A stretch of DNA of 63,799 bases, filler included, from Reclinomonas americana ATCC 50394 (GCA_048213135.1; 6 parts of 4 records of this genome joined end to end with filler, not necessarily neighbours in it); one strand, 5' to 3'; shown: positions 3,001 to 59,060, counted from the first letter of the whole stretch. The notes: generated by a model not told the origin, from the letters alone. Program-made: numbers and translations.

Positions 3001-6000
3001 ATTGGCGCTGGTGGCCATGGCCGTTCTCGGTGGCTACTGGCCTGTGCCAATCGAGGGTGCGACCATTCAGATGGCCGGTCGCGGATCGGGTGTCATTTCT
3101 GCTCGTGATGTTCCCATCCCCGGTCGTTGCACGTGCATCTTTGCGTCGGAGCCGTCGGTGTCGGTGGTGTTCGACACCTCCTCGCTGCAAGCTGTGGACT
3201 CGGTACGTGTTTTTCTACTTGAAATAACTGCTAAACATAAGCTGACCACCTTCTGCTGGCTCGTGTAGGTGGAGCCGCCGCCGCCGGCGTTCTGCGAGAA
3301 GTTGCAGCACTTGCCGGCTGCGCTGACGACTGCCATTAGCCTGTGTGGTGTGGTGGCAGGCCCATCGGTTACGCCGCAACGCTTGGTCGACTCGCTCGCG
3401 CTGCACCTGCGCGGATCCGCTTTGGCCGCCGCCGGTTGTCGTGTGCTCTCCGTACTTTACGACCACGGTGCAGGTGTGTTCCTCTCGCTCCCACAATCGC
3501 AGCTCTTGTTGCAGAGCCACTCACATTCTATGCAGATGCGAGTCCGCCAGTCGTCGGCCTGCTCGTGCGCTTGATGTCAAGCGCTCGCACGACGCGTGGC
3601 GATGAGGTGTTGGGTAGCCTGCGCCGTCGCTTTGCTGCTGTCAAGGTGGCAAGCCGCGGAGGTGAGTGACTTGAGTGGCATGCCCTGTTGCTTTCTTCTC
3701 CTGTTCACACGCGTTTGTGTGCGTGTTCGTGTTTGCATGCAGCTGGTCCGTCCGAGGCCGAAGTTATCAAGTCGCTCTCGTGGCTCCTCCCCGTGGATCG
3801 GTCGTCGGTCGACATGAGTCCGAGCCCGAGCCTGGTCGATGCGTCGCCTGATGTTCTCAGCCTGATGTCGTCTCCNNNNNNNNNNNNNNNNNNNNNNNNN
3901 NNNNNNNNNNNNNNNNNNNNNNNNNNNNNNNNNNNNNNNNNNNNNNNNNNNNNNNNNNNNNNNNNNNNNNNNNNNNNNNNNNNNNNNNNNNNNNNNNNNN
4001 NNNNNNNNNNNNNNNNNNNNNNNNNNNNNNNNNNNNNNNNNNNNNNNNNNNNNNNNNNNNNNNNNNNNNNNNNNNNNNNNNNNNNNNNNNNNNNNNNNNN
4101 NNNNNNNNNNNNNNNNNNNNNNNNNNNNNNNNNNNNNNNNNNNNNNNNNNNNNNNNNNNNNNNNNNNNNNNNNNNNNNNNNNNNNNNNNNNNNNNNNNNN
4201 NNNNNNNNNNNNNNNNNNNNNNNNNNNNNNNNNNNNNNNNNNNNNNNNNNNNNNNNNNNNNNNNNNNNNNNNNNNNNNNNNNNNNNNNNNNNNNNNNNNN
4301 NNNNNNNNNNNNNNNNNNNNNNNNNNNNNNNNNNNNNNNNNNNNNNNNNNNNNNNNNNNNNNNNNNNNNNNNNNNNNNNNNNNNNNNNNNNNNNNNNNNN
4401 NNNNNNNNNNNNNNNNNNNNNNNNNNNNNNNNNNNNNNNNNNNNNNNNNNNNNNNNNNNNNNNNNNNNNNNNNNNNNNNNNNNNNNNNNNNNNNNNNNNN
4501 NNNNNNNNNNNNNNNNNNNNNNNNNNNNNNNNNNNNNNNNNNNNNNNNNNNNNNNNNNNNNNNNNNNNNNNNNNNNNNNNNNNNNNNNNNNNNNNNNNNN
4601 NNNNNNNNNNNNNNNNNNNNNNNNNNNNNNNNNNNNNNNNNNNNNNNNNNNNNNNNNNNNNNNNNNNNNNNNNNNNNNNNNNNNNNNNNNNNNNNNNNNN
4701 NNNNNNNNNNNNNNNNNNNNNNNNNNNNNNNNNNNNNNNNNNNNNNNNNNNNNNNNNNNNNNNNNNNNNNNNNNNNNNNNNNNNNNNNNNNNNNNNNNNN
4801 NNNNNNNNNNNNNNNNNNNNNNNNNNNNNNNNNNNNNNNNNNNNNGTTGGCCACACTGCTGGTTCGGGGTGTATTTTTTATTCTCAAAGCAATTGAGATG
4901 CTTACTTGTGTGTGCAGTCGGAGGCAGCCGGAACTTCTGTCATGTGCGACAAGGGTCACCGGATGCAGATGCTCTGCCGACAATGCCCACCGAGCTATGT
5001 TGCTCGCTACGGACTTGGCGCAAGTGCACAGTGCGATGTGTGCCGTACCAAGAACATTCACCAGCAAGAGCGCATGTGGCATTGCTCGCTGTGCAGCTAC
5101 GATCTTTGCGAGCCATGCGTGAAGAAGGTGAATTTGGGGAAAGTGTTCCGCAACATGCAGCAGTTTTCAAATCGCCACGCTCACCGTGCTTGCCTCGCAG
5201 CGCGTTCCTGGCATCAAGATTGGCGGCAGTGGTGCAAGTGGTAGCGGCGTCGCCGCCCCGGCTGATGTGCCAACATTTGCCACCGCTCCGGAATCCTTCT
5301 GGGCTTCGCGCGGTGACGTTGCTCCGTCGCCCAGTGCCGCCGTATCGGCAGCGCGTCCGCGCGAAGAATTCGCCTCAGCGGCACAGTATGCCGCGTACGT
5401 GGCCCGCACGTTGCGTCTCCCGTGTGTCACTGTGCTTACCTGCTTTGGCGTGCCCTGCTCACCATGTTGTGCACAGTGTCCAACCCGGTACCGAGGTGCG
5501 CATCGGAGCGGAGGATTCTGGCCGTACAGGCCGTGTGGTCAGCGTGGACCGCACGTACCTCAGCCAACTGCGTGCGATGCCGGCCACCACATCGGTGACA
5601 GTCGAGGTATGTTCATCTGTGCCTCGTGAATGGCGTGGAAATCGCGTTGCGTGACCCTCATCTACTGTGTGTACGCGCGCGCGCAGCTGACTGGTGGTGA
5701 GCGTGCCACCTTCCCGGCTGACCAGCTGACACTGGCTGCTGCCGGTGCTGCGGCTGGCGCGCCCGCTGCTGGTGCGTTTCCATTGTGCACACACACATAC
5801 ACACTCATGCTTTCATGCTGTTGCTGAGTTCACCTCTGTCGCACCAGGTTCATCAAGTGCGGCGAGTGTGCGCACGCTGGCGGACTTTGGTGGCGACACG
5901 ACGCAGTACCTGGCGTACCTGCGGACCAATGTGGAGAATGGCACTGTTGTCGTGGCCGCTCGCGATTCGGAAGGCGTGTTTGCCGTCGGCGACCGAGGTT

Positions 6001-57614: not shown

Positions 57615-59060
57615 ATGTTGCAGGTGCGTTCATCGCCTCCCCTTGTGTGTGCCACCACTTCTTGCGCACGGCATTCATCTTGCTCCTCCTTTTCACCATG
57701 TGCTTATCGTGTGGGGCGGTCTGCGTGTGTGTGTGCGTGCGCGGGCGGCATTTCTCACACGGTGTGAGAGTTTTTCGCAACCACAACACTGTATTCTCTC
57801 TCACACAGTGCGCATGCACTCACACACGCGCTCTTGCCTTTTCTTCCTACACTCTCTTTCTCTCTCTCATTGTGCGCGGAGCTAGTGCGCATCATGTCGC
57901 GGATCTTACTGATTCCGCGGAGCAGGTTGGCTGGTCGGCGCTGCGCTCGCAGTTCAACGACTTTGCCTTGACGTCATGGCTCCCATTCAGCGCGCTCGTC
58001 GGCTCCTACGTGGTCTTCAATCTGCCTCTGATGCTGCTGGAGGCGTTTGATTGGGCCCCTCTGCGCAAGTACAAGATCCAGCAGGTAACGTCGCTCTCTC
58101 CTTCTCTCTCACTCTCTCACTCGCTGTCTTACACTCATGATTGTGCTGCTACAGTCATACCGCAACGATAACAGTGTGACGTGGGCGTGCGTCAAGCAGC
58201 TCGCCTTCAACTACTTTGTGATCATGCTGCCGTTGATCATCCTGTCGTGCCCGCTGTTCACGGTGTTGTTCCCGATGGACGAGGTGCTGCCGTCGTGGTG
58301 GGCTGTTGCGTACTTTCACCCTCGCCCTCTGCCCTCCTTTGTCTTCCTGCTGATCGCCATGCGCATATTCCAGATACTGGTGCAGATTGCGGCGTGCATG
58401 GTGATTGAGGACACGGTGCACTTCTGGTTCCACTGGCTGTTGCACACCGAGTGGCTGTACCGCAAGGTGCACAGTGTGCACCACGAGTTCACGGCGCCGT
58501 ATGGAATCTCTGCCTCGTATGCGCACCCGTTGGAGGTGTTGGTGCTCGGCATGGCCACCTTTGCCGGTCCTATTATCATCCGACCACACATTGTGGTGTT
58601 CCTGCTGTGGGTCAACGTGCGACAGGTGGGGCGCTCTCTCCCGTTTCGCGCTTGTGATGTGGGTGAACCTCACATTGTGCACGCAACAGCTGCTGGCGGT
58701 GGAGACGCACTGCGGCTACGACTTCCCCTGGTCACCCAACAATGTGCTGCCGGGCTGGTTCGGTGGCGCCGACTTCCACGACTACCACCATCGCACCTAC
58801 AAGGGCGCCTACTCGTCCACCTTTGTGTGGTGGGACGAGTTTATGGGCACTGGTGAGCAGAGTGTGTGCAAGAGTGTTGTTCCCCTTCACCTCTCTCATC
58901 GTCGCATGCAGACAACGGCTACCTGTCGTACAAGTACAAGGCCCTGCAGGAGGGCAAGCACGTCAACAGCGGCGGCTACAAGGTGGGTGTCGGACAGGCC
59001 GGCACCACCACCTCATTCGCGAGCGGATTCAAGGCCAACCCCAAGGCCAAGCAATCATAG
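57615..59060 (+). CDS. ERG25: Methylsterol C4-monooxygenase (ERG25/SMO2-like, fatty acid hydroxylase family)
   Basis: His boxes FHWLLH, HSVHHE and FHDYHH; YAHPLE, ETHCGYDFPW, WDEFMGTD. Start inferred as ATGTTGCAG|GTGCGT (57615) spliced to GTTGGCTGG (57926), giving MLQVGWSALRSQFNDF. Confidence 0.9.

Follow-up and report, generated by a model that had tools for sequence, protein, structure and literature searches.

In this study, the 5′ splice sites (donors) of introns were analysed in a window of 63,799 bases of DNA from Reclinomonas americana ATCC 50394, the window being the whole stretch examined, with 55% G+C and 4,239 N spread over 21 runs. The DNA is eukaryotic and short introns interrupt its genes densely; judged from sequence, these are U2-type GT-AG introns with a median length of 68–69 nt, a branch-like CTNAY motif and a YAG acceptor. 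Three genes were used for the placement of junctions by homology. The first, at 4847–15564 on the plus strand, is probably one giant HECT ubiquitin ligase gene interrupted by N gaps, and its HECT domain is located at 14790–15341. The second encodes a class I phosphodiesterase (PDE), and the third, at 49805–50917 (+), is a Dus3 gene whose spliced protein is 66% identical over 249 residues to the nearest homologue fetched. Introns in these and other genes of the window carry two kinds of donor, a canonical class (GTNNGT) and a shifted class (GTTNNGT) with one extra base after the GT. Both classes have in common the heptamer G-K-U-N-N-G-U, which is cleaved ahead of its first GU.

A first-pass annotation of the sequence had listed 40 donor coordinates, including 28 shifted donors, 9 unshifted donors and 3 exceptions. 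The motif given for each was present at 40 of 40, and the base preceding the 28 shifted donors was A in 14, C in 8, T in 6 and G in none. On both strands together, the hexamer GTTGCG occurred 109 times (64.8 ± 8.1 expected) and the heptamer GTTGCGT 43 times (14.9 ± 4.0 expected), and 0 of 100 dinucleotide-preserving shuffles reached either count. Predicted donors coincided with 36 of the 43 heptamers, at which the preceding base was A in 12, C in 13, T in 8 and G in 3, with G making up 29% of the window. Seven heptamers lay off predicted donors (e.g. at 5646 and 6161); at least two of them were inside modelled introns (5607–5686 and 6124–6195), and these non-donor copies could be alternative or decoy donors.

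The two classes were recovered by a donor-agnostic gene finder, a Viterbi procedure with codon scoring in which any GT..AG intron of 40–350 nt was allowed and no further donor information was supplied. The commonest donor hexamer was GTTGCG at all three penalty settings (10 of 125, 18 of 186 and 21 of 283 introns). Addition of donor-independent terms (length, YAG and a branch-like YTNAY) gave a neutral model with 177 introns, 125 of which were intron-like. In these 125, G preceded GTTNNGT in 1 of 18 cases and GTNNGT in 26 of 37 (Fisher p = 5.8e-6), the remaining 70 introns belonging to looser categories that include some miscalled in-frame alternatives. An unsupervised two-component mixture fitted to the 125 neutral donors before any feedback returned nnG|GTGcGt and ncn|GTTGCGTc with shares of 0.69 and 0.31, respectively; after five self-training rounds the shares were 0.66 and 0.34. 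The self-trained catalogue of 163 introns, which is descriptive only, consisted of 75 GTNNGT donors (58 after G), 26 GTNNG (25 after G), 43 GTTNNGT (4 after G), 8 GTTNNG (1 after G) and 11 others. Shifted donors amounted to about one third of introns, with 18 of 55 classifiable neutral donors and 43 of 135 good self-trained introns. When a model rewarding the listed donors was used, 34 of 35 listed sites on the plus strand and 5 of 5 on the minus strand fitted short-intron models that preserve the open reading frame (ORF). The sole listed plus-strand site without a fit was 10553, where the model meets an N gap. Five listed sites (52211, 52746, 53540, 58305 and 21074) were unused by the self-trained model. 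ORF continuity was the sole basis for placing site 5410, the four introns of a repeated unit in the HECT gene described below, site 25710 and the five minus-strand sites.

For placement by homology, single exons were used to fetch 120 Dus3 proteins, 26 PDE proteins and 150 HECT domains, and a hidden Markov model (HMM) was built for each family; a first search with a HECT exon, which yielded no homologue at E ≤ 1e-10 among 1127 word-sharing candidates, was replaced by a full HMMER search. Every in-frame, stop-free GT..AG alternative within ±36–45 nt of a junction was scored against the HMM. Results showed that the modelled junction had the top score in 21 of 21 cases, including 5 of 5 for Dus3, 7 of 7 for PDE and 9 of 9 for HECT. 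The PDE figure covers the conserved domain, two upstream junctions, among them the listed exception 25896, lying outside the homology placement; one of the seven, with donor G|GTGGGT at 26656, is a corrected version of the initial PDE model. None of the 10 shifted donors placed in this way followed a G and all 11 canonical donors did so (p = 2.8e-6), in agreement with the earlier proposal. These 21 homology-placed junctions show two donor classes and their link to the last exon base.

Seven of the shifted junctions led all in-frame GT-AG alternatives by 6–45 bits (individual margins are listed in Table 1), and alternatives that added or dropped a codon cost approximately 3–12 bits at conserved junctions. 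At conserved motifs named by the first-pass annotation, the margins were 28.8 bits at HNRYH in PDE and 44.8 bits at WGADERGV in Dus3. At WCGHC in the PDI gene, the intron starting at 39344 splits the W codon and the following exon begins at position 30 of the Thioredoxin profile; frame continuity was the basis for the other four PDI junctions. Profile coordinates of SRAP and FA_hydroxylase continued over three more canonical junctions.

It may be asked whether the junctions are misplaced, GTTGCGT being an exonic or intronic element beside the true donor. The junctions rest on models, five of the sites (52211, 52746, 53540, 58305 and 21074) come from the model that rewards listed donors, and three homology margins are of 2 bits or less. 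Against such an artefact stand the seven junctions with large margins and the cost of adding or dropping codons. Homology is blind to an equal slide of both borders, so it is the GT..AG rule that fixes their exact position; when the borders were moved by −3 to +3, GT and AG appeared together only at the modelled border in 10 of 10 shifted junctions. Placements with both borders slid equally were dropped solely because the introns would become TT..GN. As a control, the same junction finder was applied to 80 metagenome Dus3 loci of other eukaryotes; it yielded 49 junctions, 0 of them with GTTNNGT, so the method itself does not generate the shifted class. We regard misplacement as very improbable. 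No close match was among the 80 loci, identity reaching at most 90% across a strongly conserved exon of 50 residues, and GTTGCGT was not enriched on the sense strand of any of them. No close relative of the organism was found among the protein and metagenome search results, and the HECT clusters obtained from a protein atlas carried no lineage signal of use.

The donor matrices of the two classes coincide when offset by one base. The canonical matrix reads A−2 0.41, G−1 0.84, G, U, G+3 0.59, C+4 0.41, G+5 0.93 and U+6 0.71, and the shifted matrix A−1 0.45, G, U, U, G+4 0.84, C+5 0.82, G+6 0.91 and U+7 0.80; the sole mismatch is canonical G+1 versus shifted U+2. Of 36 shifted donors, 28 had GC at +4/+5; of 50 canonical donors, 11 had it at +3/+4. 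In the self-trained set, column −2 of the shifted exon fitted canonical −3 (p = 0.68) and differed from canonical −2 (p = 0.0085). Apart from the donor, introns of the two classes were similar: median length was 69 nt for shifted and 68 nt for canonical introns (p = 0.20), G+C was 0.54 and 0.55, a YAG acceptor was present in 46 of 50 and 102 of 102, and YTNAY, a loose motif and hence weak evidence, occurred 6–50 nt from the acceptor in 46 of 50 and 93 of 102. If the introns were retained, the reading frame would be disrupted by 34 of 43 shifted introns and by 69 of 84 canonical ones.

The rule that had been proposed for the last exon base held in part. Shifted donors almost never followed G, but canonical donors followed a base other than G in 11 of 37 cases in the neutral set. 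Likewise, the claim that exons ending in G use unshifted donors agreed with 11 of 11 homology-placed canonical junctions, and three modelled G|GTTGCGT introns (314, 24933 and 32150 on the minus strand) depart from it. A further donor, G|GTAACGT at 58085–58154 (+), classified as unshifted by the first-pass annotation, has its extra base elsewhere (GUAA-C-GU) and follows G; it is a single case resembling a bulge at +5. U12-type introns were rejected as an identity for the introns, since the window has a single RTATCCT and none of the 163 predicted donors carries it.

A one-base displacement of this kind could also arise from a bulged register, in which U1 and then U6 would pair with G+1 and U+2 as usual, a U at +2 or +3 would loop out, and pairing would resume at +4. 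The cleavage register would be unchanged and nothing would replace the exon-final G. Such a register gives as many intron pairs as the shifted register, a human "bulge +2/+3" class has been validated (of 201,541 donors, 68 were predicted to belong to it and 54 were kept; PMC4856993), and the three modelled G|GTTGCGT introns are consistent with it. A looped base could be any base, yet of the 25 non-canonical donors with the pattern GTXNNGT in the neutral model, 18 had T as the extra base (118 of 515 GTXNNGT sites window-wide). An exon-final G would pair with C9 of U1 and be favoured; it is actually depleted, being found in 1 of 18 neutral donors and 3 of 36 GTTGCGT donors. The resemblance of shifted exon column −2 to canonical −3, seen in the self-trained set only, likewise speaks against a bulge. 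Because G is depleted before the donor and T at +3 is strict, the shifted register fits better, and we consider looping-out unlikely.

In the region of approximately 8.4–10.6 kb, upstream of the HECT domain, four tandem copies of a unit of approximately 580 nt are present, and every copy contains an alanine-rich linker and a paralogous intron; no Pfam family was found for this unit. In the four paralogous introns (8963, 9553, 10136 and 10553), donor positions G,T,T,-,C,G,T are invariant, the preceding base and +4 vary, and the intron bodies are unalignable. Since the donors were kept while the bodies diverged, selection is indicated on the shifted motif.

The uniformity of the heptamer could instead reflect a common origin, in a lineage-specific wave of inserted elements that brought their own complete donor. 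This reading concerns origin, not recognition, and is compatible with the others. In addition to the uniform heptamer, the positions of the three canonical Dus3 introns, by codon and phase, are also occupied by introns in the loci of other eukaryotes (4, 1 and 2 of the 49 junctions), and none of those junctions coincides with the shifted Dus3 intron at 50479, which is a lead only, from a position test with one mappable shifted intron (49854 is unmappable). An all-versus-all blastn comparison of 135 introns gave 38 matches at E < 1e-3, of which the 20 listed were all of 15–29 nt and mostly simple repeats; the only similarity between introns consisted of short stretches of low complexity, none longer than 29 nt. 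Length, G+C, branch motif and acceptor are as in the canonical class, the repeat introns have diverged except at the donor, which points to a motif held by selection, and depletion of G before the element is not expected from random insertion. We find an intron-gain legacy improbable. An introner-like family was rejected, as the introns are without shared sequence along their length.

Table 1. Introns and donors of the two classes in the window. A vertical stroke separates the last exon base from the intron; bits give the lead of the modelled junction in homology scoring; unlisted, absent from the first-pass annotation; bonus model, gene model rewarding listed donors.
Position	Strand	Class	Donor	Gene or context	Basis
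13725..13792	+	shifted	A|GTTGCGT	HECT	best of 12 alternatives, margin only 2.0 bits
14088..14156	+	shifted	A|GTTGCGG	HECT	best of 7 alternatives by 9.9 bits
14612..14679	+	shifted	C|GTTGCGT	HECT	best of 9 alternatives by 10.6 bits
15339..15415	+	shifted	C|GTTGCGT	HECT	best of 4 alternatives by 11.6 bits
15454..15524	+	shifted	T|GTTGCGT	HECT gene tail	best of 8, margin only 0.6 bits
26313..26379	+	shifted	T|GTTGCGT	PDE, Y codon of HNRYH split	best of 4 by 28.8 bits
26441..26522	+	shifted	A|GTTGAGT	PDE	best of 3 by 15.4 bits
26915..26979	+	shifted	C|GTTGCGT	PDE	best of 8, margin only 0.5 bits
49854..49918	+	shifted	A|GTTGCGT	Dus3	best of 6 by 6.4 bits
50479..50561	+	shifted	A|GTTGCGG	Dus3 (WGADER|GV)	best of 2 by 44.8 bits
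39344..39426	+	shifted	T|GTTGCGT	PDI, W codon before CGHC split	sequence reading; Thioredoxin profile
39550..39618	+	shifted	A|GTTGAGT	PDI	ORF continuity in neutral, self-trained and bonus models
39939..40028	+	shifted	A|GTTGCGG	PDI	ORF continuity, same three models
8963..9032	+	shifted	A|GTTACGT	repeat unit 1	bonus model; paralogue alignment
9553..9621	+	shifted	C|GTTGCGT	repeat unit 2	gene models; paralogue alignment
10136..10222	+	shifted	C|GTTGCGT	repeat unit 3	gene models; paralogue alignment
10553..10625	+	shifted	A|GTTTCGT	repeat unit 4	acceptor by paralogy; N gap at 10641
5410..5476	+	shifted	C|GTTGCGT		all three gene models
25710..25777	+	shifted donor	A|GTTGCGT		gene models; acceptor uncertain, 25777 or 26036
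43509..43577	-	shifted	A|GTTGCGT		gene models
44333..44389	-	shifted	A|GTTGCGT		gene models
44636..44731	-	shifted	T|GTTGCGT		gene models
48342..48402	-	shifted	A|GTTGCGT		gene models
21010..21074	-	candidate shifted	A|GTTGCGC		bonus model only
52211..52347	+	candidate shifted, weak	C|GTTGCGC		bonus model only
52746..52828	+	candidate shifted, weak	T|GTTGCGC		bonus model only
53540..53623	+	candidate shifted, weak	C|GTTGCGT		bonus model only
58305..58385	+	candidate shifted	T|GTTGCGT	upstream of FA_hydroxylase match	in frame, stop-free
10928..10999	+	shifted, unlisted	T|GTTGCGT		neutral and self-trained models
33287..33347	+	shifted, unlisted	C|GTTGCGT		gene models
34152..34220	+	shifted, unlisted	C|GTTGCGT		gene models
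34256..34325	+	shifted, unlisted	A|GTTGCGC		gene models
54034..54105	-	shifted, unlisted	C|GTTGCGT		gene models
56400..56464	-	shifted, unlisted	C|GTTGCGT	SRAP gene	gene models; preceding exon = SRAP profile 145-193
314..400	+	exception	G|GTTGCGT		gene models only
24933..25009	+	exception	G|GTTGCGT		gene models only
32150	-	exception	G|GTTGCGT		gene models only
13934..14003	+	canonical	G|GTCGGT	HECT	best by 7.7 bits
14376..14454	+	canonical	G|GTTCGT	HECT	best by 6.2 bits
14735..14813	+	canonical	G|GTTTGT	HECT	best by 2.4 bits
14949..15032	+	canonical	G|GTGCGT	HECT	best by 6.5 bits
26103..26168	+	canonical	G|GTGAGT	PDE	best by 10.3 bits
26656..26724	+	canonical, unlisted	G|GTGGGT	PDE	best of 16 by 8.6 bits
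27069..27136	+	canonical	G|GTGCGT	PDE	best by 33.8 bits
27270..27332	+	canonical	G|GTGAGT	PDE	best by 14.9 bits
50053..50108	+	canonical	G|GTGCGG	Dus3	best by 31 bits
50282..50342	+	canonical	G|GTAAGT	Dus3	best by 13.2 bits
50714..50790	+	canonical	G|GTATGT	Dus3	best by 12.4 bits

Five identical 100-nt joins, each composed of 44 N, TTAATTAATTAA and another 44 N, were found at 9213, 40266, 49748, 59707 and 61542. They are artificial six-frame-stop linkers joining assembly pieces, and genes flanking a join may therefore not be neighbours in the organism. The window also contains a gene for a SRAP-domain protein at 57616–55755 (−) and a gene of the fatty-acid hydroxylase family at 57615–59060 (+). 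At 54270–55610 (+), units of approximately 90 residues are repeated, which look cadherin-like by eye and gave no Pfam match; searching Pfam with ten long ORFs and ten exons of unassigned genes also returned no match. T strongly exceeds A on the sense strand of genes, the AT skew being −0.22 to −0.28 at 1–16 kb, where the genes are on the plus strand, and +0.19 at 20–24 kb.

The first-pass annotation had offered routine U1 pairing in a shifted register as one reading of the shifted donors. The sequence pattern, with matrices offset by one and T at +3, supports the register, and the duplex energies do not support routine pairing to a standard U1. For a 5′ end of the human type (PMC4856993), RNAduplex predicted shifted donors (n = 36) to pair at −1.28 kcal/mol on average, against −6.57 for canonical donors (n = 63) and −2.67 for 500 random GT sites, all of these being model values without pseudouridine or U1 proteins. 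The shifted consensus formed only 3 bp with the human-type end, and no register was stable. The two pseudouridines of standard U1 face the positions of the GC core, and GC cannot pair with them. From these predictions it is unlikely that a standard U1 is enough for the shifted donors. Because the GC core is near-fixed and the predicted pairing to human-type U1 is very weak, a divergent or second U1 is favoured, and it is likely that the U1 5′ end of this organism, or a U1 variant, differs from the standard sequence. Of the three options that had been offered (shifted U1 pairing, flexible U6 pairing and variant small nuclear RNAs, snRNAs), the variant snRNA gains weight on the same grounds. An Rfam search of the window found no snRNA at the gathering threshold; two weak unrelated matches were seen at E ≤ 1, neither of them an snRNA.

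A more specific possibility, which we put forward as doubtful, is that the organism has an altered U1, or one dedicated to these donors, in which the near-universal 5′ end ACUUACC would be replaced by a sequence complementary to the GCG core, perhaps with a second U1 that carries C8→A and would pair perfectly with GUUGCGU. If two U1 forms differing at position 8 exist, G|GUGCGU would be read by one form and H|GUUGCGU by its counterpart; the choice of U1, and the spacing to the U6 helix, would depend on the last exon base, making a two-register code for about one third of introns. GC at +4/+5 in the shifted donors lies opposite the two pseudouridines of standard U1, and hypothetical ends bound the shifted donors better than the human-type end in the energy model. 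With a G5C6 end the predicted energies were −7.0 for shifted and −9.16 for canonical donors, and the consensus folded in the shifted register with one mismatch; with a G5C6A8 end they were −10.83 and −5.88. For Ostreococcus, whose GTGCGTG donors are atypical, Irimia and Roy considered that an snRNA might have changed (PMC2483917). The omission of pseudouridine and of U1 proteins from the energy model counts against an altered U1. So does the high conservation of the U1 5′ end in eukaryotes, which is among their most conserved RNA sequences, including in GC-rich algae with GTGCGT donors. An altered U1 overlaps with the explanation preferred below, which would then involve a non-standard U1 reading the shifted register.

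The best explanation, in our judgement probably correct and held with modest assurance, is that the window has 5′ splice sites that fall into two classes and are built on one heptamer, which in shifted-class introns is read in a shifted register; the identity of the RNA that reads the motif, like the register it uses, is our inference. When K is G, the exon would end at the first G and the intron would start with GUNNGU, giving canonical G|GUGCGU. When K is U, the first GU would come one base earlier, so that A, C or U would be the last exon base and GUUNNGU, typically GUUGCGU, would open the intron. Early U1-type pairing would read the heptamer in one register, with intron G+1 of the shifted class filling the place of the exon-final G and U+3 that of U+2. 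Cleavage would occur at the first GU, and the later contact of U6 with G+6/U+7 would have to tolerate one extra nucleotide from the scissile bond.

Several points weigh against this explanation. The register model would need a U1 change or the help of proteins, because the predicted pairing with the human-type end is weaker than that of random GT sites. According to the mixture matrix, the number of exon-side base pairs is about equal for the shifted and bulged registers, and in the neutral set, which is smaller, neither exon-column comparison reached significance. Self-training strengthens the very donor classes on which its catalogue is built. The junctions are model predictions, margins are thin (0.5–2 bits) at the shifted donors 13725, 15454 and 26915, and an equal slide of both borders alters at most one residue and is invisible to homology. 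All data stem from a single 64-kb window, and the shifted introns include four that are paralogous to one another.

Human donors with U1 pairing shifted by +1 are among the closest known parallels, and the first-pass annotation cites rare GUUAAGU donors as an example described by Roca and Krainer in 2009. In the parts of the literature that treat such donors, U1 is proposed to pair one nucleotide downstream while the real GU is still cut (PMC11162779, PMC4856993 and PMC9311317, citing Roca and Krainer 2009), and the oligonucleotide tested was GUCAAGU (PMC4856993). The donor pattern of the window is the one expected from such a register. The window class is like them in having the consensus with one base inserted after GU. 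As far as those passages go, the human cases are a few atypical sites with a core that pairs with the pseudouridines, whereas here about one third of introns are concerned and the core is GC; unlike the human sites, the window class nearly excludes an exon-final G and is predicted to bind human-type U1 below the level of random GT. The validated human non-canonical U1 registers together account for 1.5% of 201,541 donors, according to the passages of PMC4856993 on them. The human bulge +2/+3 class also starts with GUU and has its downstream pairing displaced by one base, but the passages of PMC4856993 describing it mention no dependence on the last exon base, which the window class has.

A division of labour between exon and intron is familiar from AG//GUNNN and NN//GURAG donors, in which one class leans on the exon-final G and the other on the intron, in anticorrelated fashion. 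Those two share one register, whereas here the intron-leaning class has moved one base inward; the canonical class of the window departs from that scheme in carrying the exon G (84%) plus G+5 (93%). A GTGCGT(G) donor consensus is given for Ostreococcus and Micromonas in the passages on their introns (PMC2483917 and PMC3879977), and the canonical class resembles these Mamiellophyceae in its AG|GTGCGT-like donor and CTGAC-type branch motif. The same passages do not mention a shifted GTTGCGT class such as is seen in the window, and nothing in the homologues fetched suggested that the DNA belongs to the Mamiellophyceae. For the tandem donor of STAT3, a non-canonical, shifted U6 register was shown with engineered U6 in the portion of PMC11162779 concerned; it exemplifies the U6 shift that the shifted class would need catalytically, but in one human donor, not a genome-wide class. 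In the literature searched, partly at the level of titles and abstracts and with supplements outside the search, no report was found of shifted donors as a major component of a genome.

Taken together, the observation is confirmed as real: the shifted class accounts for about one third of the introns of the window, and the near-absence of G before GTTNNGT is seen both in the unbiased set and in the homology-placed set. The shifted register is the best fit to the pattern and is partly supported by sequence, and there is a fair chance of more unusual snRNA biology. Known shifted and bulged registers in humans range from a handful to approximately 1.5% of sites and were proven minigene by minigene; about one third of introns using one such register, under a simple rule set by the last exon base, would, if true, amount to an experiment of nature on a large scale. 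It would bear on how the cleavage site is chosen when U1 and U6 pairing are displaced, on the tolerance of the catalytic core for the spacing between the GU and the U6 helix, and on the co-evolution of the U1 5′ end and donor sites. In practical terms, gene predictors with a single donor matrix will misplace about one third of the junctions in this genome.

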